Below, piece by piece: positions 30,312-63,658 of a stretch of 64,000 nt of DNA. The stretch is from positions 37,711 to 101,710 of the forward strand of contig JBDRUN010000001.1 of the NCBI GenBank assembly GCA_039801365.1. Direction: 5' to 3'. Each line of letters opens with the position of its first letter. The stretch's first letter is position 1. The notes under the pieces were generated by a model that saw only the letters and a list, made by a program, of their open reading frames with translations, made no database searches and was not told the origin of the DNA. The position numbers were made by a program, and so were the translations under genes. This stretch comes from a candidate division WOR-3 bacterium (GTDB lineage: Bacteria > Hydrothermota > Tepidihabitantia > Tepidihabitantales > Tepidihabitantaceae).

Positions 30312-31538
30312 TCAGCGCAGCCGGCTGACCACTATTCTCTGCGCGACGCTGAACTCCGACGCTTCCAGTCGTGCAAGATAGATGCCGCTGGACAGTCGGC
30401 GGATGTCCAGCGGAATTCCTGATGACCACTCTCCAATGGCCAATAAATGGACAAGAACGCACCTGCCCGCAGCGTCAAATACACGTAGGTTCGCCCCCTG
30501 AACCCTTGATCCTTTGAACCCTTGAACCTTGACCGTAGTAACTTCGCCCGTCACCGGATTCGGGCTGACCTCCAACCATGGTAGCAGGAGGCTCTCTGCC
30601 TCTTCCTCGACCCCGCCCGAACCTGACGTCCACCAGACATCGTTCAGGAAGTTATTGTGTGCTATCTGTCCACCCATGACCCAAATCTTGCTATCGTAAA
30701 CGATTGTGGTATGGCTGCACCGTTGGCTCCACATTGGTGTTGAGCGGGGCATTTCAGTCCAGTACGCGCCGTCCGTGGAATACCATACGTCGTTTCGGTG
30801 CGAGCCGTCATAACCGCCTAATACCCAAAGCTTCCCATCAAAACCTACGCTTGTGTGCAAATGCCGCGCCGACCATCCAGCCGCTGACGTCGCCTGTGTC
30901 CAGTTCAGGCCGTTAGTCGAATACCACACATCATTCAGGTCATCCGGGTTACATCCGCCGAGCACCCACATCTTGCCATCGTGCACGGCTGCGGAGTGCC
31001 AGAACCTTGGCGGCCACTGGGCCGCAGGTGTGGCCAGCGTCCATGTTGCACCGTCGGTTGAATACCAGACGTCATTCAACGGGTCGTAACCAGGGTACTG
31101 GAACCCTCCCAAGACCCACATCTTGCCGTCATAGACAAGGGCCCGGTGCCCAATTCGGGATGTCCACATGGGCTGGTTTGTGTTCACCTTTATCCATGTT
31201 TCGCCGTCAGTAGAATAGAGCACGTCGCTGGTGTAGTTACCGTCCTTGTATCCGCCGAGAAGCCACATCTTGCCGTCATAGTCAAGCGCTACTTGGTCGT
31301 TGCCATACCCCGGTGTTGACGCCGCCTGGGTCCAATTTGTGCCGTCCTTCGAACTCCAAACGTCTTTCGCATCTGCGCCCCGGCCGTACAGAACCCACAT
31401 CGAGTTGTCAAAAGCAACGCTGGCGTGCAACTCCCGCGGCGCCCATGGCGCCGCCGGTGTTGCCAGATTCCACGTTATCTGGCCGACTACAGGCACAGTC
31501 AGAAAAAACAAGACGATTCCAACCGCCAACCTACGCAT
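30312..31538 (-). CDS. Secreted Kelch-repeat beta-propeller protein with T9SS C-terminal domain (paralog)
   Basis: Same repeat architecture. Start reset to MRRLAVGIVLFFLTVPVVGQ, preceded by AAGGAG. Its stop abuts the previous gene. Confidence 0.75.
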   Translation of the reverse strand: MRRLAVGIVLFFLTVPVVGQITWNLATPAAPWAPRELHASVAFDNSMWVLYGRGADAKDVWSSKDGTNWTQAASTPGYGNDQVALDYDGKMWLLGGYKDGNYTSDVLYSTDGETWIKVNTNQPMWTSRIGHRALVYDGKMWVLGGFQYPGYDPLNDVWYSTDGATWTLATPAAQWPPRFWHSAAVHDGKMWVLGGCNPDDLNDVWYSTNGLNWTQATSAAGWSARHLHTSVGFDGKLWVLGGYDGSHRNDVWYSTDGAYWTEMPRSTPMWSQRCSHTTIVYDSKIWVMGGQIAHNNFLNDVWWTSGSGGVEEEAESLLLPWLEVSPNPVTGEVTTVKVQGFKGSRVQGANLRVFDAAGRCVLVHLLAIGEWSSGIPLDIRRLSSGIYLARLEASEFSVAQRIVVSRLR

Positions 31539-32436
31539 TCCTTCTTCTCCTTTTCTTAGTTTCCCAGTCTTTGCTGTGCGGGTTTTCGAAGGAACGGTCC
31601 TTGCTCCCGCCATTTGGCTCTATTCGCTCAAGGTAGCGCGCCGCATCCTCACCTTCGGCCCACAGCGACTCGAACGCGCGGGCAAAAACCTCACCGACCG
31701 CTGCATCGTTTACTTTGAACAGAACCCCTTTTTCGTGGGAATTCTCCGGTCTCACCCAGGTCACCTGCCGATCAACCACGACGAATGTTGTCGGCAGCCG
31801 GTCAACCACCCGTGACTCCTCACCGGCCTTGATCAGCGCCAGTGCATACCGGCGTTCCTCCGGGTCGGCGACCGCTTCCGCCAGATACATGCTTCGGCAC
31901 CGTACCCTGCGCCGAATCGCCCCGATCTCGACCCGACACGCCCTGTTTCGGAAAAGTTTCAGTTTGTCCGCTGGAAGATATCTGGGATGCCGACCGCGCA
32001 CAAACAGCACTTCCCGCCGCGCCTGTTCAATATGCTTGAGCCGGTCCCAGTAGCCAGCCCCCGGTTCCTCGGCCGCGGCCCGGCGCACTTCGATAAACGG
32101 CAACGGACGGTTGTTATCAGCCCGGCGCCGGTACGCTTGCTGCAGCATCTTTACCGACTCCTGTTGTGTGTGAAGCAACCGGTGAGTCCGGCGTACGGTC
32201 GCATCAAAGACAACGTCCGGCGGTGCGGCCGCAAACATCCCGACCTGACCTTCAGCGTGCGTCACGAACCCACGCTCGGCAAGCCGCTTCAGCGCTGCGT
32301 ACACGTTGGGCCGGTGGATGTGGGCTGCTTTGACAAGGTCACTGACCGTCGCGTGTCTGATGCGTAGCAGCGCCGCATAGACCCGCGCTTCGTTCAAGCT
32401 CAGACCTAGCGTCTGGAGCCGTATTATTGCGTCCAT
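31531..32436 (-). CDS. TrmB-family transcriptional regulator
   Basis: N-terminal wHTH LGLSLNEARVYAALLRIRHATVSDLVKAAHIHRPNVYAALKRLAERGFV, typical of TrmB sugar-responsive regulators. It is the first gene of the minus-strand T9SS-cargo array. Confidence 0.7.
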   Translation of the reverse strand: MDAIIRLQTLGLSLNEARVYAALLRIRHATVSDLVKAAHIHRPNVYAALKRLAERGFVTHAEGQVGMFAAAPPDVVFDATVRRTHRLLHTQQESVKMLQQAYRRRADNNRPLPFIEVRRAAAEEPGAGYWDRLKHIEQARREVLFVRGRHPRYLPADKLKLFRNRACRVEIGAIRRRVRCRSMYLAEAVADPEERRYALALIKAGEESRVVDRLPTTFVVVDRQVTWVRPENSHEKGVLFKVNDAAVGEVFARAFESLWAEGEDAARYLERIEPNGGSKDRSFENPHSKDWETKKRRRRNA

Positions 32437-38606: not shown

Positions 38607-38627
38607 GCCTGGGAGAAAGTAGAGCGA

Positions 38628-38660
38628 GTTACAGCGTTACATGTTACAGGTTACAAGTTG
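38628..38660 (+). repeat. Short array of the GTTACAG heptamer (GTTACAG-CGTTACAT-GTTACAG-GTTACAA)
   Basis: Seen in sequence between nikR and the TonB-dependent receptor gene. It is the same heptamer as the arrays at 57003–57088 and 57584–57616. Confidence 0.7.
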
Positions 38661-38778
38661 CGCTATTGCCCGAGGGGAGTAGCGCGAAAGGAAAGGTTGC
38701 TTTCTGCCCCGGGCAACGAAGCCGGCAGCACGGAAGGTAGGAACGACAGGAAACTGAGATAGGAAAAGGAGATCTAGG

Positions 38779-40596: not shown

Positions 40597-41544
40597 ATGG
40601 CAAGGTCAGACAGCTTGATTCGAGCCAGTGGCTTGAAGTGGTGGAATGGTGCGAATGGACGACTATGGCTTCTGTCCGGCTGGGTGCTGGTGGCCATTGC
40701 GCTGGGGCTGGCAGTTTTTGGTTGCGCGGCCAGGCCTGGTTCCCGGCTCCGGGTCGTGACCACCACTACGCTTATTTCTTCCATAGTTGAAGCGATTGGT
40801 GGCAAGTATGTGCAGGCTACCGCCATTGCGCCTGGTGGCATGTGTCCGGGCCATTTCGATATTCCACCTTCGGCCGTGGCTGCGGCAAACGATGCCCAGC
40901 TCCTACTCAATCATGGCTGGGAAGAGTGGTTTGCCAAGCTGGAGCAGGCGTTGCACAATCCCAGAGTGATACGCCGGACGCTGAGCACCAAGGGCAACTG
41001 GATGGTGCCGGCTATACACAAGCAGGCGGTAAAAGAGGTTCTGCAACTGCTCGTGGAAATAGACAGCGCTCACGCGGACAGCTTCCGCCTGGCCGCACAA
41101 TACTATACAGCGCAAATAGATTCCGCTGCGGCCCAGGCGTGCAGCCTTTTTTCCGGCCGGGCCATGCCCAGAGTAATTGCGGCTGAGCATCAGGCTCCTT
41201 TCCTGCGCTGGCTGGGATTTTCTGTGGTTGCCACCTATGGCCGGCCCGAAGAATTCACCGCTCAGGAACTGGTGCGTCTGGCCCGGGTAATGGCCGACTC
41301 CGGGGTCATGCTTGTCGTGGACAATCTGCAGTCCGGTTCAGATGCAGGCAAGCCACTCGCCGAAGCCCACGGCGTAGCACATGTCACCCTGACTAATTTC
41401 CCGCTACCCGGCAAAGCCAAAAACCAAAAGAGCAAGAAAGCCGGAAAGCCAGAAAGCCAGAAAGCAGAAAAGCCAGCCTACTGCCAAGCGCTTCTTGACA
41501 ACGCCCGCGCCCTTGCTTCTGCTCTGGAAGGCTTGAATCCCTGA
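40597..41544 (+). CDS. Metal ABC transporter substrate-binding protein (TroA/ZnuA-like cluster-9 SBP)
   Basis: Signal/TM anchor. CPGHFD motif. Placed between the TBDT and the ABC ATPase. Confidence 0.75.
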   Translation: MARSDSLIRASGLKWWNGANGRLWLLSGWVLVAIALGLAVFGCAARPGSRLRVVTTTTLISSIVEAIGGKYVQATAIAPGGMCPGHFDIPPSAVAAANDAQLLLNHGWEEWFAKLEQALHNPRVIRRTLSTKGNWMVPAIHKQAVKEVLQLLVEIDSAHADSFRLAAQYYTAQIDSAAAQACSLFSGRAMPRVIAAEHQAPFLRWLGFSVVATYGRPEEFTAQELVRLARVMADSGVMLVVDNLQSGSDAGKPLAEAHGVAHVTLTNFPLPGKAKNQKSKKAGKPESQKAEKPAYCQALLDNARALASALEGLNP

Positions 41545-52248: not shown

Positions 52249-53844
52249 TCATTGACCCTCCTGCTTGCTGTTTCGCGACAGGCTCCGCAGTCGCGCCACT
52301 GCCTCGGCCACGAGCCTGCCCTGTTCTTCAATCGCGTCCAGCAATTGCTCCGGCGTGCGGGTATCTTCCACGACTTTGCGGTTCGGGTTCACCGCCTTCA
52401 AGTCGAGCCCACGTTTCTCCAGTTCCTCCCGCGTCACGGTCCAGCTCCTCTCGCTCTCGCCCCGCTGGGGCAGAAGCCGAAAGAAGTCCTCGAACCGGTC
52501 CCGGGTCAAGGGCTTCTTCTTTGTCACCTTCACGTCCGAGATGTCGTAGTACCAGACTTTCTCGGTCGGCCTGCCCTTAGTGAAGAACAATAGGTTCGCC
52601 TTCACGCCCGCACCCGCGTTGATGAACGTGCCCGGCGGCAGGCTGATGATGGCCCAAAGGTCGCACTCGTCCAATAGCTTCCGCTTGGTCTGCACGAAAG
52701 CGTTCTCGTTGGTGCGGAAGAGCACACCTTCATCCAGCACGATACCGGCGCGCCCGCCCGGCTTCAGGGAGTCAATTACATGCTGGAGAAACAGCACCTG
52801 CGTGGCGCTGGTTCTGTAAGCAAAACGGGTCTGAGCCTCTTTGCTCTCCTTCCCGCCGAATGGCGGATTCATCAGGATGACATCGTACAGGGAAGGCGCT
52901 CCGGTAAACAGACCGCCATATATTTCCTGTCCGGTCAGGGTATTGCCGTGCCAGATGTGCGGTTCGTCAATCTCGTGCAGGACCAGATTGGCAAGCGCAA
53001 TCGGATAAATGGTGTTGTCCTTCTCCCGGCCAAAGAAGGTTCTACGTTTGAGGATATCCATCTGGTCAGCGGTGACGTTCTCGCCCAGGCGGGCCCGGAT
53101 GTGCGCGTAGGTCTCGGCCAGGAATCCGCCGGTTCCGCAACACGGGTCGTACACCGTTTCTCCTACCTTCGGGTCTATTCCGCGCACCAGCACCCGGATA
53201 ACCTCGCGCGGTGTGAAAAACTGGCCGCCGTCATTGTTCTTCTCGCCCATCTTGAGCAAAAGACCTTCATACACCTGAGACAAGGCGAACACGTGGGTCT
53301 GGTCAACCGTCTCGTGCGACAGCTCGTTCACCTTGTCTAGCACGTCCAGGAGGTTCCGCTCGGTATCAATTCGCGTGCGCTCCACGCCGGAGAAGATTTC
53401 CGAGATAACCTTCTGCCGCGGGGTGGCGTTCGGCTTGTCCTTCAGCGCTTTCAGGTGTGGAATCAGGTCCCGGTTCACGAAGTCGTAGAATGCGTTGGTC
53501 GCGCCTTCCACCAGCGCCTTACGCTTCTTTCCGTCGGGCGCGGCCCAGTCGCGCCAGCGGTAGGGTGGTTTCAAAGACGGCGTGAACGGCACGGACAGCG
53601 CCTCGGCCTCAATCGCCTCGCGCTGTTCGCGCTCATCCAGAATCCGCAGGAAAAGAATCCAGGTCAGCTCCGGCACGTACTGCATCGCACCGGCGCAATT
53701 CGACCGGCGCATAATGTCGCAGATGGACTTCACAGCGGAATTGACCGAAGCGGGAGAGGCTAGGAGTTTTGGATTTTGGGTTTTGGATTTTGGATTGAGA
53801 GGGGAACGAGGACGATTCTGGGTTTTGGATTTTGGACTAGGCAT
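52249..53844 (-). CDS. hsdM: Type I restriction-modification system methyltransferase subunit HsdM
   Basis: HsdM_N-like …SICDIMRRSNCAGAMQYVPELTWILFLRILDE…. SAM motif DPCCGTGGFL. Catalytic NPPFG (ILMNPPFGGKE). The first roughly 40 codons (PKSKTQN…) are encoded by the TTTTGGA repeat array, so the start could instead be an internal codon. Confidence 0.85.
   Translation of the reverse strand: MPSPKSKTQNRPRSPLNPKSKTQNPKLLASPASVNSAVKSICDIMRRSNCAGAMQYVPELTWILFLRILDEREQREAIEAEALSVPFTPSLKPPYRWRDWAAPDGKKRKALVEGATNAFYDFVNRDLIPHLKALKDKPNATPRQKVISEIFSGVERTRIDTERNLLDVLDKVNELSHETVDQTHVFALSQVYEGLLLKMGEKNNDGGQFFTPREVIRVLVRGIDPKVGETVYDPCCGTGGFLAETYAHIRARLGENVTADQMDILKRRTFFGREKDNTIYPIALANLVLHEIDEPHIWHGNTLTGQEIYGGLFTGAPSLYDVILMNPPFGGKESKEAQTRFAYRTSATQVLFLQHVIDSLKPGGRAGIVLDEGVLFRTNENAFVQTKRKLLDECDLWAIISLPPGTFINAGAGVKANLLFFTKGRPTEKVWYYDISDVKVTKKKPLTRDRFEDFFRLLPQRGESERSWTVTREELEKRGLDLKAVNPNRKVVEDTRTPEQLLDAIEEQGRLVAEAVARLRSLSRNSKQEGQ
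53766..53838 (+). repeat. (TTTTGGA)n-type tandem array (GTTTTGGATTTTGGGTTTTGGATTTTGGATT … GGGTTTTGGATTTTGGAC)
   Basis: Seen in sequence between the Fic stop and the hsdM start. It overlaps the N-terminal codons of the long hsdM ORF. Confidence 0.8.
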
Positions 53845-53850
53845 GACGGT

Positions 53851-54855
53851 TCACCTCAACAGATACTTACCCGATCTCCGCGTACCGGAGCGCTTTACCA
53901 GCCCGGCCGCAACAAGCGGTTTCAGAAGGTCCAGGGCACCCTGTTTCGAGACGCCGAGCGCCTCGCGTATCTCGCGCGGGCTCATCGCCTGGCGGTCGCG
54001 CAGGAGCGCCAGCAACTGCTCCTGTTTTGGCCGCAGCACCACTTTCTCCGTGCTCTGGTCGGCGGCCAGCCGCTGGATGCGCAACCAGACCCGTTCCAGC
54101 ACGAGTCGCAACCCGGTGGCGCAGTATTCCAGCCAGCCGGTGAGGTTGCCGCCCTGCCGGCCGACCTCACGCAGGGCCTCGTAGTAACGCGGTCGGTCCT
54201 CCCAGAAGTACTCGTCCACCGAAAAGATGTGATGCGTGTCGAAACCGCGGCGATAAAGCTCCCACAGGGAAAGAAGCCGGCCGACCCGGCCATTGCCGTC
54301 GCCGAATGGATGAATGTCCTCGAAACGATGATGCACGATGGGGGACGAAATGACCGCAGACCAGTCCCGCGCCGAGCCGTTCCACCAGTCCAAAAGGTCG
54401 GACATCAGAGGTTCAACTTGCTCGGGTGGCGGCGGCTTGTGCGGCCCAACCCATACCTGGATGCGGCGATATGCGCCCTCCTGGCCCTGGTCCATCACAC
54501 CCCGGCAGGCAATTAGATGAAGCCGTAGAATGTCCCGGTGCACGAGCCGGCGCTTGGCCGCGTGCGTCTCGATGTAACGCAGGGCCGCGAAGTAGTTCAG
54601 CACCTCCTGCCGCGAACGGTCCGCAATGGCCGGAACGTCACGGCCTTGCGCGAGGTCACGTACCTGCTCCTGAGTCAAAGGATTCCCCTCGATGGCAGTC
54701 GAACTGTGCGTGTTTCTCACCCTTGCGTCTTGCTGAAGCCGGGGAATCCACGGCACCTGCACGGTTGCGGCCAGCACCCTTGCCCGCAGTGCGGCGATTT
54801 CCTCAATGAGCGCAACCAACCGCGCCGTTACCTCAAACGCCGGTACGTATGCCAC
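53851..54855 (-). CDS. Fic/DOC family protein (putative AMPylase) with C-terminal wHTH
   Basis: Canonical Fic motif HPFGDGNGRVGR. C-terminal winged-helix (…MSPREIREALGVSKQGALDLLKPLVAAGLV…). Confidence 0.85.
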   Translation of the reverse strand: MAYVPAFEVTARLVALIEEIAALRARVLAATVQVPWIPRLQQDARVRNTHSSTAIEGNPLTQEQVRDLAQGRDVPAIADRSRQEVLNYFAALRYIETHAAKRRLVHRDILRLHLIACRGVMDQGQEGAYRRIQVWVGPHKPPPPEQVEPLMSDLLDWWNGSARDWSAVISSPIVHHRFEDIHPFGDGNGRVGRLLSLWELYRRGFDTHHIFSVDEYFWEDRPRYYEALREVGRQGGNLTGWLEYCATGLRLVLERVWLRIQRLAADQSTEKVVLRPKQEQLLALLRDRQAMSPREIREALGVSKQGALDLLKPLVAAGLVKRSGTRRSGKYLLR

Positions 54856-54913
54856 GGTTCTACTCTACAATAAGTCAAGTATAAGTCAAGTTATTAGTCA
54901 AGCCAGGACTGCA

Positions 54914-54942
54914 ATTTTGGATTTTGGGTTTTGGATTTTGGA
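54914..54942 (+). repeat. (TTTTGGA)n-type tandem array
   Basis: AATTTTGGATTTTGGGTTTTGGATTTTGGA, immediately 3' of the four-helix-bundle gene. Confidence 0.8.
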
Positions 54943-55299
54943 TTAGGCGCGGGAGCGTCTCAAAGTCTTGATGGATGCTACCGTCATCGCCAAGATGTTG
55001 TCGGCTTCAGCCATCAGGTTTTCCGTATCCGGCTCGGATGCAAGGCGAGCGGCGACGAGCAGGTCCAGCCAATAGATGACCTCATCGGCTTCCTCCTCAA
55101 CGATTGCCAGTTTGGCAAGCATATCGGCCCGTGACCGGGCCCGGCAGGCCGCGCGGTAATTCGCGCCGACCGACGTGGCGCACCGCAATAGTTGCCGGCC
55201 GATGACGTCTGCGCAACGGCTCCGCGGCAGCTCATCAACCAGCCGGATGGCCTCCAACCCGAGTTTTCTGGTCCTATCCTTGAACTCCTGCTCAGTCAC
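54943..55299 (-). CDS. Four-helix-bundle protein (TIGR02436 family; '23S rRNA intervening-sequence protein')
   Basis: 118 aa. …EAIRLVDELPRSRCADVIGRQLLRCATSVGANYRAACRARSRADMLAKLAIVEEEADEVIYWLDL… is the characteristic pattern. Confidence 0.8.
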   Translation of the reverse strand: MTEQEFKDRTRKLGLEAIRLVDELPRSRCADVIGRQLLRCATSVGANYRAACRARSRADMLAKLAIVEEEADEVIYWLDLLVAARLASEPDTENLMAEADNILAMTVASIKTLRRSRA

Positions 55300-55352
55300 C
55301 GCGCCTCCTCAACCCAGAATCCGCGACCCTCGCTCTTCTGCTCCTTCTCTGC

Positions 55353-55436
55353 CAATCCAAAATCCAAAATCGGCAATCCAAAATCATCTGCGCCCCCATT
55401 TCCGCCAATCCAAAATCCCCAATCCAAAATCCAAAA
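55353..55436 (-). repeat. (TTTTGGA)n-type array in inverted orientation (CCAAAATCCAAAATC … CCAAAATCCAAAATC)
   Basis: Seen in sequence between the hsdS stop and the four-helix-bundle start. It is the reverse complement of the 54914–54942 array. Confidence 0.8.
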
Positions 55437-55997
55437 TCAGATGTCTCCTCTAAACGCCTTCCGCAACAGCGCGGCCGGCAGTTTGTTGATTGTTTCCAAC
55501 TGGGCCTCAAGGGCCAGTCGGTGCTTCTCGGCCTCGGCCATACGTTCATTCAGCATCCCCGCAATCCGCCTCTGCTCGGAAAGGGGAGGAAGGGGAAGGA
55601 CAATCTCAGCCGCGACCTTCTGGTTCAGCTTGGCCCTCGTCGCACCGGCGACCATATCGCCCACATCGGGCCGGATTCGGATGGCCAGCAAGCAGTAGGC
55701 AAAGTCAATGCTATCAGGTCTTGGTCTGAGCACGTGAGCGTGGTTGTTGACCCAGTACTTGCCAGCCACAGCATAGGCGATAGGTCTGTCAGCGGATCCA
55801 AAGAACCCGCCGTCCTCGGCGAGCAATATCAGCGGTTCATCGAAAAGGTATCCGTCTATCCAACCCACTTGGCCATTGGCACCATAGTAGGGGTATAGCT
55901 CTGCCTGTTTCTTTCCCGCGATGCGCCGCATTCTGTCGGGTTCATTGACGGGCACTCTCCGGCCGTCTAAGAACTCGCACACCTCTCCCAGCTTCAC
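55437..55997 (-). CDS. hsdS: Type I RM specificity subunit HsdS (single target-recognition domain, half-size)
   Basis: 186 aa. One TRD followed by the conserved coiled-coil region …LPPLSEQRRIAGMLNERMAEAEKHRLALEAQLETINKLPAALLRKAF. Confidence 0.75.
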   Translation of the reverse strand: MKLGEVCEFLDGRRVPVNEPDRMRRIAGKKQAELYPYYGANGQVGWIDGYLFDEPLILLAEDGGFFGSADRPIAYAVAGKYWVNNHAHVLRPRPDSIDFAYCLLAIRIRPDVGDMVAGATRAKLNQKVAAEIVLPLPPLSEQRRIAGMLNERMAEAEKHRLALEAQLETINKLPAALLRKAFRGDI

Positions 55998-56046
55998 CCA
56001 TCGCCAGCCGGGGGGGAAGGGGGCGTTGAACGCCTGTGCTCAAGAC

Positions 56047-56955
56047 CTATGCCTCCTCGTAGCTGCGCTGCAGCAAGGTCTGTGCCTTCTGCAGGCTTGT
56101 CTGGTCGGTAACCACTACTTCCAAGTCGCCCGTGCCCCAATGACCAATCTGGCTGACGTCGCGGGTGAACCCAGTCTCCAGCTTCACCGACTTGGGGTCG
56201 AGCTTGAGATACAGGGTAAGCGCCTTGCGGCTGAATTCCACGCAGGCGAAGTTCTTGATGCGGCGGAAGGCCACGTAGAGCTTGAGTTGCTTCTCGGTCA
56301 CGTCGTCGCCCAGGGCAAGTATGAACGCGCGCAGAGAGTCGTAAAGGTCGCGCATCTGAGGACTCATTTCCCTTAGCCAAGTGGCAACGGTCTTGTCTGT
56401 CCCGCCGGCTGAAACGCGGCTGCGGCGGCGGACAGACGCCGGCTCTTCGCCTGTCGCTCTGTAGACAAGGTCGAGTGCCAAGAGCTCGTCGCCGAACCTT
56501 CGGTAGCGCACCAGTTCCACGTTGCGGCCCATCTGCTTGACCGCGTGTTCGTCGTACTTGGTAAAGTCGGCAGCGATGCAGAGCAGGCGCGGGCCGGTCC
56601 AGTCTATTGCATTGGCCGCCTTCTGCCCCAGTTTCTTCTGTACCAGCAACTGGAACTCGGCCTTGTGGTCGAGAAGCCAGTCCAGGTAGAAAAGGCCCTG
56701 GTTGATGACATTCTCGTTCGTCGCCTTCTTGTATTCGATGATGACCGGGCAGTTGTTCTCGTCTATGCCGAGCGTGTCAATGCGGCCGGCGTGGCTCTTG
56801 CCGGTAGAGTATTCCGAGTCAAGGAAGCGAACCCCGAGCATCGTCTCCAGGTTCTTTTCGACGACGTCCTGAAGTGATTTCTCAAGCGGCGTTGCCTTGC
56901 CCGGCAGTTCGGTCGCCTTGTTGCCGCTCAGGCGGAAGAGTTTGATTTCGCTCAT
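56047..56955 (-). CDS. PD-(D/E)xK nuclease-fold protein with C-terminal domain of unknown function
   Basis: N-terminal …GRIDTLGIDENNCPVIIEYKK… looks like the D…(D/E)xK core. Total 302 aa. It is embedded in the RM locus. Confidence 0.5.
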   Translation of the reverse strand: MSEIKLFRLSGNKATELPGKATPLEKSLQDVVEKNLETMLGVRFLDSEYSTGKSHAGRIDTLGIDENNCPVIIEYKKATNENVINQGLFYLDWLLDHKAEFQLLVQKKLGQKAANAIDWTGPRLLCIAADFTKYDEHAVKQMGRNVELVRYRRFGDELLALDLVYRATGEEPASVRRRSRVSAGGTDKTVATWLREMSPQMRDLYDSLRAFILALGDDVTEKQLKLYVAFRRIKNFACVEFSRKALTLYLKLDPKSVKLETGFTRDVSQIGHWGTGDLEVVVTDQTSLQKAQTLLQRSYEEA

Positions 56956-57002
56956 CGGACGCTCCTTTCAGAAAGAGCTGGGGAACAGGGCAGAGTCACG
57001 GC

Positions 57003-57088
57003 GTTACAGATTACAGCAAGAAAGTTACAGGTTACAGAGTTACAGGTCACAGCAGAAAGGTTACAAGTTACAGGGTTACAGGTTACAG
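57003..57088 (+). repeat. About 10 tandem copies of the GTTACAG heptamer with short spacers
   Basis: Seen in sequence, e.g. GTTACAG-ATTACAG-caagaaa-GTTACAG-GTTACAG-aGTTACAG. It ends 2 bp before the stop of the second four-helix-bundle gene. Confidence 0.85.
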
Positions 57089-57090
57089 GA

Positions 57091-57576
57091 CTATTGGTCA
57101 TTGGCTTTGCGTTTGCGTTGTTCGGCCAGTTCGTCTAGAATCCGACTCCTTTCTTCCGCGGCTGCCACCGCCTGTTGTTGTCTTGCGTGTTGTTTCTGGC
57201 CCGGCATTCCGGAGCCCTGAAGGTATTGGATGAATCTGTATAGCATCGCGCTGAGCCGGCGGCATTGCGCACTCGCCGAATCGCAGTCTTTGGCGCTGAT
57301 ATAGCCCTGGTCACGCGCAATGCCAAGCTGGGCCCGGACTTCGCCGCAGGAGCCTTTGGCGACGTAGAGAAACTGCACGAGTTCCTGCGTCGAACCGCGT
57401 TCGTGCCCTTCCGCGATGTTGGACATGATGGAGACCGCGGCCCGGCGAATCTGGTCAACAAGGCTGCGGTCCCTGGTGAATGCCGGTTGCCGCGTGAGAG
57501 CATAGACCTGGTTGGTCAGTTCTCGCGCCTGCTGGTAGACCTTCAGTTCCTCGAACTTCTGTACCGTTTCTTTCAT
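57091..57576 (-). CDS. Four-helix-bundle protein (TIGR02436 family), second copy
   Basis: Start reset to MKETVQKFEELKVYQQARELTNQVYALT…. The core …IRRAAVSIMSNIAEGHERGSTQELVQFLYVAKGSCGEVRAQL… matches the family. Confidence 0.8.
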   Translation of the reverse strand: MKETVQKFEELKVYQQARELTNQVYALTRQPAFTRDRSLVDQIRRAAVSIMSNIAEGHERGSTQELVQFLYVAKGSCGEVRAQLGIARDQGYISAKDCDSASAQCRRLSAMLYRFIQYLQGSGMPGQKQHARQQQAVAAAEERSRILDELAEQRKRKANDQ

Positions 57577-57583
57577 CTCCCCC

Positions 57584-57616
57584 TCTCTGTAACTCTGTAA
57601 CCCTGTAACCTGTAAC
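57584..57616 (-). repeat. GTTACAG heptamer array in inverted orientation (plus strand reads CTGTAAC x4)
   Basis: Seen in sequence immediately 5' of the second four-helix-bundle gene. It is the reverse complement of the 57003–57088 array. Confidence 0.8.
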
Positions 57617-57622
57617 ACATCT

Positions 57623-58075
57623 CTACGCCGCAAACAGTCTGACCTTGGTTTCTTTGAGTATTTTGGCCGGCTTGCCCAGTTCGGCTAGCGCTTTCACTCC
57701 GCCGGCACGTTTGACCTTCGGGGTCTGGAATACTTCCGGGTTTTCCAGTCCTTCGGTGCCCGCAAGGGCAAACTGGGCAGCAAGGGCTTTGAGGGTAGCG
57801 GCCGCGTTTTCGGGCAGGCTGGCAAGCCACTCTGCATGTTTATAGGAGAATGCCTCAGCCCGCTCTGCGCGCGTGCGCGGAGCAAGGCCGTAGCCGAGTT
57901 CGGCCAGGACGTCGTACAGGTCATAGTCGTCCATTTCTTCCACGCGCTGCACCAGCGAGGGTGAGTAGCCGGCGCTAACGAGGGCATCGATGAGTGCGCG
58001 GCGGCGGGCAGGTTCTACCAAGCGGTCGCGGAACGCCTCGAGCGTCGGCGCTTCGGCCACGAGTTTGGCGGCCAT
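57623..58075 (-). pseudogene. hsdR: Detached C-terminal domain of type I restriction enzyme HsdR (EcoEI_R_C-like)
   Basis: 150-aa ORF. …VEEMDDYDLYDVLAELGYG… resembles the HsdR C-terminal domain. It is separated from the helicase fragment by 9 bp and a frame break. Confidence 0.55.
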
Positions 58076-58084
58076 CCGTTCCTT

Positions 58085-59098
58085 CTATTCTTCTACTGTG
58101 ACGGGTATTGCCCTGCCATCCACTTCGGTCAGAATGTATTTGCCGGCCGGGGTGACGCGGACCTCGAATCCTTCTACGCGGATGGGCGGTTCAGGCGGAG
58201 GCGAAGGCTCGCGCTTTTCGCTTGATCTAGTCGGTCGGGACAGGAACTCTTCGCCGAATAGCCGAGTAGCGTTGGTGTAGTCGTAGACCGTGAATGCTAG
58301 TTTGCCCGAAGGCGGGTCAATGCGCGTGCCCCGGCCTACCATCTGGTAGAAAGCGATAGGCGATTTGACATACTTAAAGAAGGCGATGTTGCGCACACAG
58401 GGCACGTCCACGCCGGTGGTCAACAGGTCAACGGTGGTGGCGATGAAGTGGTGGCGCGAGGCACCGCGGAAGTCAGGAAGCTGGTCGTTACCCGAAGCAG
58501 AGGCGGTGCATTTGAAAGCGTAGGGTTCTGCCCGGGGGTGGCCGTGCTCTTTGCACCAGCGGGCGTACAGGTTGTTCATTTCCGCAGCCACATCGTCCGC
58601 ATGTCGGTCGCGGGTGCAGAAGATGATTGTTTTCTGTTCCGGGCCGCCGGTTTCGCACAGATAGGCAAAGAGGTCGGCGCACATGGCAGACACCCGGTCG
58701 GGCAGCAGAATGCGGTTTTCGTAGTCGGTTTTTTCGTAGAGCTGCCTCAACCGGTCGGAAGAAACCGGCTGGCCGGTGTCCGCATCAACCGGTTCGCGGG
58801 CCAAAATGTCGTCAATGGTGATACCGGTGTCGTCCAGGTTGACCCGGCCTTTCTGTATCAGGCAGGCGGCAAGGTATCCGTCTTCTATCGCCTGGGCCAT
58901 GTCGTATTCGTACACCGGCTCGCCGAAGTACGCAAGGTTGTCAGCGGTAATCTTCGCGTCTGCCTGCGCCTCGCGGGTCTTCTCGGTAATCTTGAGCGAA
59001 CGGGGCGTAGCGGTGAGTCCGATGTGTACCGCATCCGGGTTACGGGTAAGTACCTGAGACCATTTGCCCCAGGCTGAGCGATGGCATTCGTCAATCAC
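58085..59098 (-). pseudogene. hsdR: HsdR helicase-core fragment (starts at motif II; N-terminal nuclease domain and motif I are missing)
   Basis: The ORF begins MIDECHRS (DECH box). It then runs GLTATP (motif III) and the …QMVGRGTR… arginine finger (motif VI). In-frame stops lie immediately upstream, and no ORF follows for about 330 bp. Confidence 0.7.
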
Positions 59099-59426
59099 AA
59101 TGTGGCTGAAGTGATTCTCCGGATAGAACTCGGTGAGGAAGCTGGCGTCGTCGTCTTCGCGGGCAATACCCAGAGTTTGGTAGGTGGCGACGTGGATGCG
59201 GGCGTTGCGGGCGTGGTTCTTGCCGTCCGGGTAGCAAGTAACTCAATGACGATCGTTCCCCTCTGACCTATTCTGCTTCGGACTCAGCTTTCTCCTCCAA
59301 TTGAGAACAGTACTAACCCACGGTTTCGACTTTCTTCAGCTCAGAAAGCGGGGGCGTCCCTGGTATTCCCAAGACCTGACCCCAACCGGCCGGCTGAGAA
59401 TCATCCGCTGTGTCACAAGAACTTTC

Positions 59427-60224
59427 CTACTTCGGCGGCCAGAAGACACCGAGCACCAAGAAACTCCGTGGGTGCAGAAATACATTGCCTACATAGAACC
59501 ACGTGTCCTTGTCCGACCTCAGCATCTCGCCTTCCCACTTCTGTCTGACCTTGCGCAGCACGTCCTGCTCGCAGTTCTCTCGGTCCCGGAGTGTGCGGTA
59601 CAACTGCATCAACTCCCAGTCAATGACGGACAGGTCGTGTCCTCGGCAGCGTTCCTCGCCTGCGCACCTGAAGCGGTAGCCAAAACGGTAGGGTATGGGT
59701 TCAATTGCCTGCTTGGCTCCGGCAAAGGCGTCAAGTTGGTCATAGAACGCAGCCCTGAACTCAGCGCTGGTAGTATCAACCGGCTCGGCGTAGAACCTCA
59801 CGTTCTCCGGCTTGACCAAGCCCAGCGATGTGGCCGACTTTGCCTGCTCGTCCTTCAGGGCGCAGAGCGACGCGGCCCTAAGCGGCAATACGATCTCACG
59901 CCTTCTGGCCCACTTGCGCTTGGTGTCCCACGCCTGCTCGACAACCCTGATGCTGTTGCGGTCTACACGGAAGCTCTCCGGACGGGTGTCTTTCGACGTT
60001 CGGCTCACTCGAGCCTCGATGACGGAGTACTTGCTGAACCGCTGCCACGAGTTCAAGTCCCGGAAGGGCACCGGATAGAGCCTAATCCACCGTTTCGCTT
60101 CCAGGTCAATGCCGGCTACGCACACGGTCTCGGTGTATTTCCGGCTCGGATTGGGATAGGTCTTGACCGTGACGAGGATGCGGCGGGTCTGCCAGTCCAA
60201 AACTACAAGTGCCGGACCACGAAC
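59427..60224 (-). CDS. Hypothetical protein (defence-island gene, no recognised family)
   Basis: Long ORF (…VKTYPNPSRKYTETVCVAGIDLEAKRWIRLYPVPFRDL…). The annotated start overlaps the DUF488 gene by 109 bp, so I propose an internal GTG. The start remains uncertain. Confidence 0.4.
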   Translation of the reverse strand, partial: VRGPALVVLDWQTRRILVTVKTYPNPSRKYTETVCVAGIDLEAKRWIRLYPVPFRDLNSWQRFSKYSVIEARVSRTSKDTRPESFRVDRNSIRVVEQAWDTKRKWARRREIVLPLRAASLCALKDEQAKSATSLGLVKPENVRFYAEPVDTTSAEFRAAFYDQLDAFAGAKQAIEPIPYRFGYRFRCAGEERCRGHDLSVIDWELMQLYRTLRDRENCEQDVLRKVRQKWEGEMLRSDKDTWFYVGNVFLHPRSFLVLGVFWPPK

Positions 60225-60721
60225 TGATGGCCGTTGCGTCCCGCCAAGACCAGAGCCAACAGCGACCTGTGACACTGCTTCGGGTCGCGCTCGTAGCACA
60301 GGAGACAACACGGCTTGGCCACAGCCATCTGGTAGAGAGATTCCACAGAGTCATCCACCGTGGCGACGTAGGCAAGATACTGACGGGCAAGTTCCTCGAA
60401 GCTGCCAGTCATCCTGTACTGCTTACGCACAGCTACAGGTGTTCCCAACTCGCGCAGGCTCACGTATTGGATACCATTCAAAGGAAGGAAGGTTGCCAGA
60501 GCCGACTTGGAAAAGCCCCGCCTGCGGCTCAGCGGCAATTGACGAACGTCCGCCACGACGGCCACCTTTTCCTGCTTCAGCACAGCAATGAACTCATCGG
60601 TCGTCCGCCCTTCATAACCGGCTGTCAACAGCGGAAACACGGGGCACGCCACGCCACAGCCTACTCCTATCCGACCGTCGGTCAAGCCCGTCCGGTTATC
60701 GATGACACCAGGGGTTGTCAA
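60203..60721 (-). CDS. DUF488-family protein
   Basis: …TAGYEGRTTDEFIAVLKQEKVAVVADVRQLPLSRRRGFSKSALATFL…GIQYVSLRELG… fits the DUF488 (YeaO-like) signature. Confidence 0.65.
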   Translation of the reverse strand: MTTPGVIDNRTGLTDGRIGVGCGVACPVFPLLTAGYEGRTTDEFIAVLKQEKVAVVADVRQLPLSRRRGFSKSALATFLPLNGIQYVSLRELGTPVAVRKQYRMTGSFEELARQYLAYVATVDDSVESLYQMAVAKPCCLLCYERDPKQCHRSLLALVLAGRNGHQFVVRHL

Positions 60722-60934
60722 AGAACCGGCCGGTGTCCATTCTTCACACTCAGCTTCCCCCAGGTCGGCCGCGTGTCAAACAGAGAAAGGGTTCCAGGGG
60801 CGAGAGGCCAAGGGTTCGGTTTTGGGAAGAGGGAGCAGGACGCTGGGGCTAGTAACTGTCGGCCCGCAAAGCGCAAGATTCAGAACCTGACCCCGGGTTC
60901 CTCACTGTTGCGGACCCCGAAGCTGTAATACCGC

Positions 60935-63658
60935 TCAGTCCTGTACGGTGAACTCTCCTCCAAGCCGCAGCTCGCGGAGGGCAGCGTTGAGTTGCTGGCG
61001 GACGGCTGGGTCCTTGAGCTTGGCCTTGATGAAGACCTCGATCTCGACGCCATCGGCGCCGGCCAGTCTGGCCAGAACGCGATGGCTGAGCAGATTCCAC
61101 ATGTCGCGTGGGATGTTGCCACGCCACTCGACCGTCGTCGGCTGGACGGTCTTGGCTTCCGGCTTCGGCGGCTCAATGATGACGGTCGTATCGCCGCCCG
61201 GCGGCGCGAAGATGTCGCCCGGCTCCGTTACGCCGCCTGTCTGCGTACCGGCCTTCGCGACCTTCGCCCGCTCGGGCAAGAGTAGAAACGTTTCGTGGTC
61301 GAACTTGACCTCAGCCGGGTCAACGGTCTCTCTGAACCATATTCTGTGCAAGTGCAGCTCGTCCTTGCCGACACCCATGCCCAACGCGCCCTGCGGTACG
61401 GCCTTCTGTATCAGCGCCAATAGAGCTTCGTCGGCGCGCTCCAGCCGCGTGAGCGACCCTTGGAAGAACGCCGCCTTCAGACTGGCGAGCGACCACGCGC
61501 CTGTCTTCTTCAACGCTTGGGGCCACTTTCGCTCAACGTACGTCGGCCCGATTTCCCGGTTCAGCAAGTTGGCTTGGCGCATCCGGGACAGTATCGCGCC
61601 AGTGATGCCGCGTGCTTCGCTGGGATGCATCATCCCCAACGTCAGCTTCTGCAGGGACCCTGCCTTTGCGTCCCAATACAGAAGGCTGCTGTATAGACTC
61701 CAGACTCTCTCTTCAACCCTGGAGTACGCCTTCTTGACCTCTGTCCTCGCCATCTGCTGCTCGTGTGGCTCCAGTTCGCCCATGCTCCCTGCTTCCACCT
61801 CGTCGGCGATGACGGTCCACGCCATCCAGTCAGCGACGTCCTTCTGCAGGCCGGTGGCAGACTCAGGCATCACCCATAAGACTGCGCCCGGATACTGGCG
61901 TGGGGACTGACCGCAGTTCACAGTCCAGGCATTCAACTGCTCAGTCTGCCTCTGATCCAATTCGCTGTCAGGCGTCCCGACCACCAGCCGCAGCACCGGC
62001 CGGTCGGATACCTCGGCCGAGTCCTTGGGGAAGAACTGGGCCTCAATCTTAGCGTTCTTGCGGAACACCTGCGTGACCACGGCGCGCGTCTGCTTCTCCA
62101 CGTCGGCCGGGTTCAGGCCAGCCTTGCGGTCGGCGTGTATCTTGCGCAAGGTGGGCGAGCAGCCAAACTTCCACCCACCGGTCCCGACCGGACGCAAATA
62201 GTAGCAGCGGCTGACCAGGGCTTGGACGGCAGTATCTACAAGCGTTGTCTCGGTTTCCGCATCTCCAAGCGCGAACCGCAGGTCGGAAAGCGTCGCTACT
62301 TTGTCGGAAACCATGCCGCCACATGACTCAAACAGTAGCGCTGTGGCCACGCGCTGGTGCAGGTTCGTCCTGCCGACGGTGTCGCTCAGCTCCTTGTCCA
62401 GAGCAACCGCAACTGCGTTCTCACCGGAGATGTCATAGTTGATAGCGTGTTCCAGCCGCGTTTCGCCCATCTGTTCCAACACCTTGGACCGAAATTCCCG
62501 ATTACTCAGCGGTGCGGAGCCAAGGGTTATCAGTGGCTCTCTGCGTGCGCAGGCATAGCCTTCCCTGGCCGCTATGGCAATCCACATTCCAAGCATCACC
62601 AAAGTACCACGAGTCTGCTGAAATGAGGGCAGCGAAGCCCACTTGCGCTGGAACACGGTCAAAGTGCTAGGGTGAAACGGATAACATGCCTCAAATCGTT
62701 TCCTTATGACTTCTTCACCAAAATTGGCGAACTCCGCGGGCAGCCGATCCCGGCGTTCGAACACCCAGCGGGCGTACTGCCGTGCCGCGGCCTGCTGCAT
62801 GCTCTTGCGGCCCGGGTCTTCAAACAGCCTGCGCCGCACAATCTCGGAAATCTCCTCTGGGTCATTCGCCAGAAGCGGCTGGCCCACCCGGTCAGTCAGC
62901 TTCGACAGCTTGATTTGCCACTCGCATAGCTCATCGGTCATCTCGGTCGGCGACGCAGGCAGGCTGAACACGCCAACCGCATTCTGCCGGGCCGTTAGCG
63001 CCGTAGTGAGATTCTGCAGGAACGAATGGAACTGAGTAGCCAGATTCCCATAGCGGCCGATGAAGTTGAGCGTCTCATCAAACAAGAACAGAATCGGCGC
63101 GTCAACCAGGGCAAAGAGTTTCTCCAGGACTTCTGTGCCGGGTGCCCGCTGCTTGAAATCCTCGCCGATGAGCTTCCGGCCAGCGTCGCCGGCCAGTTGC
63201 ACCGCCACGTCAATCCATGGCGTCTCGCTGCCTGACTTCTGGTCCCAGGAGTTACCCACGAACACGGCGACCCGCGCCTTCGGCACCTGCTTCAGGCCTA
63301 TGGCAGAAAGCAGCTCCGGCACACCGGGATATGCTTGGGCCGCTGGCCCGGACTTGGCCAGATGATAGAGCGCCGCCAACGTGTGAGTCTTGCCGCCGCC
63401 GAACTGGGTGAGCATGGAAAGCACCGGCGCGGTGCCGGAAGTCTCGCCGGCCAGTCGGCGCAGCACTTTGCCGCAGTAGTCGGTAACAAGCGCCTTGGTG
63501 AAGTACGTGCGGCCAAAGAATTGCTCCGGGTTCTTGTAGTCATCCGGCGCTCTGCCCGAGACTATCTGGTCCAGATGCACCGCGAACTCGCTCGGGTCCA
63601 GTGACCGGCCCTCGCGCAATTCCTTACGTGGTGTTGCTACCTTGTACCATGGTTCCAT
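60935..63658 (-). CDS. DUF499-family ATPase (predicted defence-system NTPase)
   Basis: 907 aa. The N-terminus MEPWYKVATPRKELREGRSLDPSEFAVHLDQIV…FFGRTYFT… and the P-loop FGGGKTHT are what I recall as the DUF499 hallmark. Confidence 0.75.
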   Translation of the reverse strand: MEPWYKVATPRKELREGRSLDPSEFAVHLDQIVSGRAPDDYKNPEQFFGRTYFTKALVTDYCGKVLRRLAGETSGTAPVLSMLTQFGGGKTHTLAALYHLAKSGPAAQAYPGVPELLSAIGLKQVPKARVAVFVGNSWDQKSGSETPWIDVAVQLAGDAGRKLIGEDFKQRAPGTEVLEKLFALVDAPILFLFDETLNFIGRYGNLATQFHSFLQNLTTALTARQNAVGVFSLPASPTEMTDELCEWQIKLSKLTDRVGQPLLANDPEEISEIVRRRLFEDPGRKSMQQAAARQYARWVFERRDRLPAEFANFGEEVIRKRFEACYPFHPSTLTVFQRKWASLPSFQQTRGTLVMLGMWIAIAAREGYACARREPLITLGSAPLSNREFRSKVLEQMGETRLEHAINYDISGENAVAVALDKELSDTVGRTNLHQRVATALLFESCGGMVSDKVATLSDLRFALGDAETETTLVDTAVQALVSRCYYLRPVGTGGWKFGCSPTLRKIHADRKAGLNPADVEKQTRAVVTQVFRKNAKIEAQFFPKDSAEVSDRPVLRLVVGTPDSELDQRQTEQLNAWTVNCGQSPRQYPGAVLWVMPESATGLQKDVADWMAWTVIADEVEAGSMGELEPHEQQMARTEVKKAYSRVEERVWSLYSSLLYWDAKAGSLQKLTLGMMHPSEARGITGAILSRMRQANLLNREIGPTYVERKWPQALKKTGAWSLASLKAAFFQGSLTRLERADEALLALIQKAVPQGALGMGVGKDELHLHRIWFRETVDPAEVKFDHETFLLLPERAKVAKAGTQTGGVTEPGDIFAPPGGDTTVIIEPPKPEAKTVQPTTVEWRGNIPRDMWNLLSHRVLARLAGADGVEIEVFIKAKLKDPAVRQQLNAALRELRLGGEFTVQD

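Follow-up and report, generated by a model that had tools for sequence, protein, structure and literature searches.

Inverted heptamer arrays flank two four-helix-bundle genes

The 52.2–63.7 kb interval of a 64,000-nt window of DNA from a candidate division WOR-3 bacterium (contig JBDRUN010000001.1, positions 37,711 to 101,710; window G+C content 58.8%) is a defence island in which every gene lies on the minus strand. In transcript order, it encodes a DUF499 ATPase, PDC-M19A, PDC-M19B, an hsdR remnant, hb2, a DUF5655/NucS-like protein, a one-domain hsdS, hb1, a SoFic-like Fic protein and hsdM. We focus here on hb1 and hb2, two small genes that are each bracketed by tandem heptamer arrays in opposite orientation, together referred to as hb cassettes (Table 1). 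An initial annotation had identified both open reading frames (ORFs) as four-helix-bundle genes of the kind found in rRNA intervening sequences (IVSs), and profile searches bear this out: hb1 and hb2 are true members of the PF05635/TIGR02436 family (23S rRNA IVS protein, S23p), with scores above the curated cut-offs of 33.8 bits for Pfam PF05635 and 24 bits for TIGR02436.

The family is very large, with thousands of relatives returned by a single search. An identical protein (100%) to hb2 occurs in a candidate division WOR-3 metagenome-assembled genome, and relatives of hb1 with 64–84% identity were found in metagenomes, Nostoc, Calothrix and Dolichospermum. The hb2 sequence matches PDB entry 2GSC (E = 2.3e-14), and a profile of hb2 relatives matches both 2GSC (E = 6.5e-22) and 2RLD (E = 1.9e-15). 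Each of these entries contains five chains, and a homopentameric toroid is attributed to Lin et al. 2006 in work on the Coxiella IVS (PMC4990558). By sequence similarity, hb2 is homologous to solved four-helix-bundle pentamers, the pentameric state being known for the relatives only. When the six-frame segments of the whole window were searched by phmmer with both proteins as queries, hb1 and hb2 themselves were the only matches and no third hb gene emerged; neither protein was matched by any PADLOC entry.

The array coordinates initially given around both genes were confirmed by Tandem Repeats Finder (TRF), pattern searches against shuffled sequence and an inverted-repeat finder. TRF placed period-7 arrays at 54914–54944, 55354–55385, 55407–55438, 57003–57089 and 57585–57616, and two further ones at 53767–53796 and 53814–53836 that the initial annotation had implied only through its start coordinate. 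A three-unit TTTTGGA pattern (≤3 mismatches) had nine matches in the window, all within 53767–55436, and none in 100 shuffles. Similarly, GTTACA(N1-2)GTTACA(N1-2)GTTACA was matched seven times against zero expected, five times beside hb2 and twice within 38628–38655. The unit proposed for hb2, GTTACAG, is more exactly a GTTACA core plus a 1–2 nt spacer.

On the sense strand, a G/U-rich array precedes each hb ORF and its complement follows. The hb2 gene has GUUACA cores with 1–2 nt spacers on the 5′ side and CUGUAAC on the 3′ side; for hb1 the corresponding units are GAUUUUG and AAUCCAA. Most blocks measure 30–34 nt, and ~31 nt corresponds to ~4.4 heptamers. One array had been described on either side of hb1, and this inverted layout stands, but the count extends to two 5′ and three 3′ blocks, the outer of which enclose both hb1 and the Fic gene. 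Neither the arrays nor the cassettes matched an Rfam family when E values up to 1 were allowed, and the only Rfam hits in the window were two tRNAs, with no rRNA.

Table 1. Window coordinates of the hb genes, their repeat arrays and the neighbouring genes (repeat units in RNA letters are given for the sense strand).
Feature	Coordinates	Strand	Properties
Orphan array, hb2 unit (GTTACA core)	38627–38661	+	Intergenic, between a gene ending near 38607 and a gene starting at 38780
hsdM	52249–53844	−	N6_Mtase E = 1.6e-59
Outer 3′-type arrays	53765–53838	−	B2 53811–53838, B3 53765–53799; inside 5′ end of annotated hsdM ORF
Fic/SoFic-like gene	53851–54855	−	Pfam Fic E = 3.9e-16; PADLOC SoFic E = 4.5e-57; absent from homologous operon L094
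hb1 inner 3′ arm B1	54912–54947	−	AAUCCAAAA units, starting at hb1 stop codon
hb1, four-helix-bundle protein	54943–55299	−	118 aa; PF05635 E = 6.5e-16 (58.9 bits); TIGR02436 E = 5.8e-23 (81.2 bits)
hb1 cassette 5′ arms	55350–55440	−	GAUUUUG/GGAUUUU units; A1 55404–55440 (begins at hsdS stop codon), A2 55350–55388
hsdS, one target-recognition domain	55437–55997	−	Methylase_S E = 8.3e-13
DUF5655/NucS-like gene	56047–56955	−	PADLOC candidate defence family PDC-S18; slot after hb2, occupied by a GmrSD/HNH gene in homologous operon L094
hb2 cassette 3′ arm	57001–57090	−	Three CUGUAAC-type blocks: 57057–57090, 57022–57047, 57001–57018
hb2, four-helix-bundle protein	57091–57576	−	161 aa, basic C-terminal tail; PF05635 E = 7.1e-35 (119.9 bits); TIGR02436 E = 2e-34 (118.1 bits)
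hb2 cassette 5′ arm	57582–57618	−	GUUACAG/GGUUACAG ~4.5 times; begins 6 nt past stop codon of hsdR C-terminal ORF
hsdR remnant	57623–59155	−	Matches residues ~310–584 of related HsdR + EcoEI_R_C domain; in-frame stop 58085–58087

Arrays also occur away from the cassettes. The one at 38.6 kb has the hb2 unit, with neither an hb gene nor an inverted partner nearby, and is followed by a 10-bp hairpin (TTGCCCGAGGGG...CCCCGGGCAA). At 30495–30532, the coding region of ORF 30312–31613 contains an 8-nt array whose unit, read on the minus strand (sense for this gene), is of the GGTTCAAG type also known from several hb2-like loci elsewhere. The array encodes ...VKVQGFKGSRVQG..., and it is missing from the adjacent paralogue at 29073–30311. 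Because phmmer returned only hb1 and hb2, both arrays are orphans.

The arms of each cassette are complementary

The inverted-repeat finder gave 87–95% complementarity between arms over 22–31 nt. In minimum-free-energy RNA folds the arms pair across the gene, with z = −5.25 for 54900–55450 and z = −3.39 for 56990–57630, in agreement with the long terminal stem that the initial annotation had expected of each element. Cognate arm–arm duplexes reach −36 to −49 kcal/mol, as opposed to only −8 to −11 kcal/mol for arms taken from different cassettes, which do not pair. The hb2 5′ arm is predicted to pair with its three 3′ blocks at −48.8, −37.9 and −23.6 kcal/mol, and the hb1 duplexes A1:B1 and A2:B1 at −41.1 and −36.1 kcal/mol. 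In a 1.7-kb fold, A1:B3 and A2:B2 pair, enclosing hb1 together with the Fic gene. Overall, the terminal inverted repeats of the modelled transcripts form a stem that encloses the element, as in an rRNA IVS.

The gene–array layout recurs across phyla

A survey sample was assembled from 80 genomic loci with hb2 relatives (43–60% identity, ~25 phyla) and 80 metagenomic loci with hb1 relatives (52–67% identity), each comprising ±2–5 kb of DNA around the hb gene. For each gene, the upstream flank of 130 nt was locally aligned with the reverse complement of the equally long downstream flank, using controls of the same spacing from the same locus. Among hb2 relatives, 66% of 76 testable loci exceeded the 99th percentile of 760 such controls, and 51% of the 68 hb1-type loci exceeded the 99th percentile of theirs. 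Furthermore, the density of short-period arrays within 150 nt of an hb ORF end was 8.3 times that in the rest of the loci, and 57 of 93 had a period of 7. The arms lie close to the ORF, the median gap being 18.5 nt on the start-codon side and 10.5 nt on the stop-codon side, and have a median length of 35.5 nt. The layout of gene and flanking inverted arrays is general across phyla, and the arrays are specifically tied to hb genes rather than being an unrelated microsatellite, the outcome on which the original proposal had been made to depend.

The surveyed genes also share a transcriptional context. When its two neighbours share a strand, the hb gene follows their orientation 54 times and runs against it twice, and the median intergenic gaps beside hb genes are 66 and 50 nt. 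The arms are polar relative to the hb gene, with 10–13% C in 5′ arms and 9–14% G in 3′ arms. Cassettes are hosted by conserved operons such as sufB-hb-sufC-sufD, tldD-hb-pmbA (Nostoc, Calothrix) and accB-hb-accC (Xanthomonas, Stenotrophomonas, Pseudoxanthomonas). Array size is peaked rather than geometric, and 119 of 257 period-7 arrays contain 4.0–5.0 units (29–34 nt). Period-9 arrays instead peak at 38–40 nt with none at 29–34 nt, which hints, on the basis of 20 period-9 arrays, that unit number rather than length is fixed.

Repeat units follow protein subfamily

Repeat unit and protein subfamily are linked. Close relatives of hb2 (69–79% identity) all lie directly after hsdR and have GTTACAG, GTCACAG or GTTGCAG units. 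At strong hb1-like loci, GATTTTG, GATTTCG, GATTGCG or GAATGCG units were found in 32 of 35, GA(T/A/G)T cores in 32 of 35 arms and GTT-type units in none, while 26 of 50 hb2-like arms contain GTT at least three times. The 5-mer Jaccard index was 0.069 within subfamilies versus 0.015 between them, a difference as extreme in 0 of 1000 permutations. Linkage extends beyond the immediate flanks, as arrays 0.4–4 kb from an hb gene share its unit (Jaccard 0.152 versus 0.042 for other loci). A core-plus-spacer structure of the arrays was also detected, the effect being modest (0.78 observed versus 0.71 under the null).

The TTTTGGA unit is common to WOR-3, Nostoc and Calothrix at about 65–68% protein identity. 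Because neutral DNA would be randomised at such protein distances, constraint on the unit sequence seems to go further than pairing requires. Together, unit conservation, the size peak, the orphan arrays and the lack of any wobble or sense-strand bias in the duplexes point to a putative recognition of the sequence itself, for which the pentameric hb protein would be the simplest candidate.

XCC0516 and the GGGAATC repeat of Xanthomonadales

XCC0516, the crystallised family member of 2GSC with its five chains, is encoded between accB and accC and flanked by the published GGGAATC repeat, and its annotated N-terminus is itself encoded by the array. The accB-hb-accC order was found in four Xanthomonadales loci (L175, L177, L179 and L180) from Xanthomonas, Stenotrophomonas and Pseudoxanthomonas. 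Their four-unit arrays are near-identical across the three genera, mismatch pattern included; the predicted stem consists of four 6-bp helices with a mismatch at every seventh position, kept across genera. The start codon of accC directly adjoins the 3′ array and so has no Shine-Dalgarno sequence. A published catalogue for Xanthomonas comprises 186 arrays of GGGAATC type, presented as G-quadruplex-forming simple repeats; four units are commonest, and 70–75 pairs are inverted (PMC4692102). As a general account, the G-quadruplex explanation (Rehm et al.) was rejected because most units lack G-tracts.

Arrays and variable gene content in the restriction-modification operon

The restriction-modification (RM) operon, which is of type I, retains hsdM, an hsdS with a single target-recognition domain and only a partial hsdR, which is 5′-truncated with the N-terminal ~300 residues gone. 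Because hsdR is degraded by this loss and by an in-frame stop codon, the restriction arm is probably inactive. The hb genes had been described as inserted into this operon. They do lie between hsd genes, but every close relative that was examined has an hb2-type gene as a regular feature immediately behind hsdR, and this subfamily always adjoins hsdR. For the family as a whole, an RM-specific role is unlikely because relatives of hb1 also occur in housekeeping operons.

The homologous operon L094 is 72–77% identical to the window operon at the DNA level and differs from it in having another hb subfamily after hsdR, a GmrSD/HNH gene instead of DUF5655 and no Fic gene. At its borders, the extra 1.1-kb Fic segment of the window has direct 3′-array copies together with 8 nt from the hb 3′ end, so that the Fic gene sits between two same-orientation copies of the hb1 3′ array. 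Judged by these boundaries, arrays coincide with joints at which gene content varies. Immediately upstream of the Fic gene, at 54870–54902, is an 11–12 nt direct repeat (ATAAGTCAAGTT, 2.8 copies) that might serve the inserted segment as an operator or promoter.

The annotated hsdM ORF overlaps the outer arrays, which encode its ~30 first codons (MPSPKSKTQNRPRSPLNPKSKTQNPK...), and similarity to the HsdM of locus L081 begins at 53727. Within 53765–53844, the annotated hsdM start is an ATG preceded by a GAGG motif, and ATGCCTAG there resembles the hb1-type 3′ end (GTGCCTAG) of L094. Three surveyed loci are also of note, with a heptamer-like patch in frame within hsdM at about 5730–5770 of L081, a duplicated hsdM 5′-end fragment between two arrays at 3717–3906 of L084, and an hsdR 3′-end remnant after the 3′ arrays at 3404–3640 of L088. 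Upstream of the operon, 59427–63658 encodes further defence-type genes, namely candidates for PDC-M19A (DUF488) and PDC-M19B (DuOB) and a 907-aa DUF499 ATPase. Two other repeats in the window are apparently unrelated to the hb arrays: a 288-bp tandem repeat at 24093–24964 (3 copies, 81% matches) and an 8-nt repeat, AAAGCCAG, at 41413–41476 (8 copies).

A proposed IVS-like cassette and its alternatives

The explanation that we favour, with a confidence that stands about midway between doubt and assurance, is by analogy with IVSs: hb gene and arrays would form a promoterless, IVS-like cassette whose arms make an RNase III-cleavable stem. In the 23S rRNA IVS of Coxiella, an S23p ORF (PF05635) is enclosed by a 28-bp terminal stem, and the 5′ region upstream of the ORF carries three GACAGAT heptamers and a fourth, degenerate one, together 28 nt. 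In vitro, this IVS is cut by RNase III where the first repeat begins, and the ends have been mapped in vivo (PMC4990558). The architecture of an ORF-bearing rRNA IVS had been suggested for the window elements from the outset, and the Coxiella heptamers and stem match it.

By this analogy, each hb gene and both its arrays would constitute a single cassette of the kind first met as an ORF-bearing 23S rRNA IVS, placed here between protein-coding genes. The cassette would have no promoter of its own and would be transcribed as part of the host operon, and its G/U-rich 5′ array would pair with the C/A-rich 3′ array to form a stem of ~25–31 bp around the ORF, with the ribosome-binding site included. 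Stems of 25–31 bp are long enough for RNase III. Cleavage by that enzyme would free an hb mRNA whose ends are paired and would cut the host transcript in two at the cassette, possibly to the benefit of the element or the host. Gene and arrays would be inherited and transferred together, each protein subfamily keeping its own unit, and array copies outside the cassette would mark sites of differing gene content in related operons, as with Fic here. Co-orientation, the lack of room for a promoter, arm polarity and 25–35 bp stems fit this mechanism, which the Coxiella precedent makes the only experimentally anchored one.

Several observations weigh against the proposed RNA stem. A test for selection on an RNA helix was negative, with G·U versus A·C mismatches of 95:81 and 29:36 (combined 124:117, p = 0.70), and sense and antisense duplex energies were equal for the surveyed arms. 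In Xanthomonadales, the seventh-position mismatches are conserved and the antisense duplex is more stable than the sense one. A strong inverted repeat is missing in about a third to half of loci. Finally, the tandem nature of the units, their sharp size (~4.4 units), their conservation at 55–68% protein identity and the orphan arrays are unexplained by pairing alone. The RNA reading is retained solely on the strength of the experiments in Coxiella and of the orientation data.

The last set of observations would be accommodated by a possible, though distinctly less probable, alternative in which the arrays are putative binding sites of the cognate hb pentamer, one ~five-core array per pentamer, on single-stranded RNA in the manner of TRAP or on DNA. 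Flanking arrays would then mediate autoregulation or packaging of the transcript of the hb gene itself, with orphan arrays as additional targets, all of which is compatible with an RNA stem. Binding is favoured by the subfamily-specific units (GA(T/A/G)T versus GTT cores, 0/1000 permutations), by the retention of TTTTGGA from WOR-3 to Nostoc and Calothrix and of near-identical arrays in three Xanthomonadales genera, and by the core-plus-spacer structure. The peaks at 4.0–5.0 heptamers and, for period 9, at 38–40 nt (n = 20) are also consistent with it, as are the shared units of arrays 0.4–4 kb away, the pentameric structures of solved relatives (five chains in 2GSC and 2RLD, homopentameric toroid) and the 186 mostly four-unit GGGAATC arrays of Xanthomonas. 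However, the link between unit and protein could reflect mere joint inheritance, and the size peak does not discriminate because a 28–31 bp stem would also be a good RNase III substrate. Binding by itself also leaves the inversion of the two arrays unexplained.

We consider it unlikely that the cassettes are mobile elements acting at the DNA level, with arrays that serve as terminal inverted repeats for a recombinase or transposase supplied in trans, or as replication hairpins, and an RNA stem that is a by-product. The complementarity is indeed strand-symmetric without wobble bias, and cassettes occupy many unrelated sites, with different hb subfamilies in the slot after hsdR of related operons. 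Direct array copies plus 8 nt of the hb 3′ end bound the 1.1-kb Fic segment, duplicated hsdR or hsdM fragments lie beside arrays in L084 and L088, and hb1-type cassettes are similar across phyla. Yet transposase, integrase and reverse transcriptase are all missing from the genes annotated within about 6 kb, the array ends of the window show no sign of a target-site duplication, and recently duplicated copies were not seen. The unrelated units of two cassettes in one genome are a poor fit to a single trans-acting enzyme, and neither the 54:2 orientation bias nor the arm polarity is expected of a transposon with symmetric ends.

Two further explanations carry very little weight. That the arrays are ordinary slippage-prone microsatellites lying near hb genes by chance might be suggested by the known over-representation of heptameric simple repeats in bacterial intergenic DNA and by an orphan array in the window, but this is contradicted by the survey: there were no shuffled matches, enrichment at hb ORF ends was 8.3-fold, 51–66% of 144 loci exceeded controls, sizes are peaked and units are subfamily-specific. 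Equally improbable is that hb1 and hb2 are Avd accessory proteins of a diversity-generating retroelement (DGR); Avd belongs to Pfam family PF05635 as well (PMC10053308), but the neighbouring genes (hsdR/M/S, Fic, DUF5655, PDC-M19A/B, DUF499) all lack a reverse-transcriptase domain and the repeats are short tandem units instead of a template/variable pair.

Implications

With the same reserve as the binding alternative, we entertain a broader idea, that hb pentamers and their cognate ~five-heptamer arrays might form a widespread protein–repeat system in which each subfamily recognises its own unit in RNA or DNA, the gene moves along with an inverted array pair at its flanks, and arrays with that unit have been seeded elsewhere in the genome. 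If true, such a system would account for the excess of short intergenic heptameric repeats (Xanthomonas GGGAATC, possibly the cyanobacterial short tandemly repeated repetitive (STRR) sequences) and would give a function to a very large family that includes DGR Avd. To our knowledge, PF05635/TIGR02436 proteins have a known function only within DGRs, rRNA IVSs have lacked an explanation since about 1990, and the excess of bacterial heptameric repeats has been an unexplained statistic since 2007. Our analysis suggests that the hb family, rRNA IVSs and the heptamer excess are one phenomenon, a promoterless gene inside operons (including the essential accBC and sufBCD) wrapped in subfamily-specific arrays. 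Xanthomonas campestris provides a culturable test case for which protein structure, repeat catalogue and RNA-seq are already published. Because arrays bound variable segments here, the cassettes also bear on how SoFic or PDC-S18 enter RM operons.

Comparison with known systems

Several classes of element share single features with the hb cassettes. Integron cassettes have a single 3′ attC, as opposed to the tandem arrays found here on both sides of the ORF, and no integrase lies nearby. For transposons and miniature inverted-repeat transposable elements, no direct repeat is visible outside the arrays of the two window cassettes and no transposase or integrase occurs within about 6 kb. Repetitive extragenic palindromic sequences (REPs), their REPIN arrangements and the associated RAYT gene offer an analogy in that a small gene is flanked by inverted short repeats that are also dispersed in transcribed intergenic regions; however, RAYT is a Y1 HUH transposase and REPs are single palindromes, whereas hb proteins have no recognisable catalytic domain and their repeats are tandem arrays. 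DGR Avd shares Pfam family and fold with hb proteins and is a pentameric barrel that binds nucleic acid and reverse transcriptase. In contrast to a DGR, the hb locus has no reverse transcriptase or template/variable repeats, and heptamer arrays at the flanks have not been described for DGRs. TRAP, a ring-shaped homo-oligomer that engages one subunit per spaced GAG/UAG repeat on single-stranded RNA, could serve as a model of how a pentamer might take up five cores, but it has no homology to hb proteins, and that five repeats meet five subunits is so far a numerical coincidence only.

Heptameric simple repeats (Xanthomonas GGGAATC, cyanobacterial STRR and Beggiatoaceae TAACTGA) resemble the hb arrays in having seven-base units that are intergenic and lie between co-oriented genes. 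The Xanthomonas repeat logo shows a conserved core with variable positions, as in hb arrays, and the XCC0516 arrays belong to the GGGAATC family (PMC4692102). The papers on these repeats read them as G-quadruplex-forming or regulatory and leave PF05635 genes unmentioned, and a single unit dominates a genome, as opposed to one unit per hb cassette. The initial annotation was aware of no description of this repeat architecture. Heptamers beside an IVS ORF are known once, from Coxiella, and four-unit heptamer arrays in inverted pairs have been described in Xanthomonas without a link to PF05635 (PMC4692102); what appears to be new is the link to hb genes in general. Within the scope of our literature search, which covered papers available without subscription, we found none that connects PF05635/TIGR02436 genes to flanking arrays beyond Coxiella, and the gene–array association is widespread and apparently undescribed outside rRNA IVSs.

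The closest relatives are the ORF-bearing 23S rRNA IVSs of Coxiella burnetii, Leptospira and Brucella, which, like hb cassettes, combine an S23p-family ORF with terminal inverted repeats that form a stem. The Coxiella IVS also has tandem heptamers directly before the start codon and is excised by RNase III from its host RNA (PMC4990558). The hb cassettes differ in lying between protein-coding genes rather than in helix 25 or 45 of 23S rRNA and in using other units, and their excision is proposed by analogy. Furthermore, the Coxiella ORF has been described as decaying and untranslated (PMC4990558), while relatives of hb1 and hb2 are conserved at 55–85% identity across phyla. Because they are not located in rRNA, the hb cassettes are not themselves IVS members, but the analogy is well founded.

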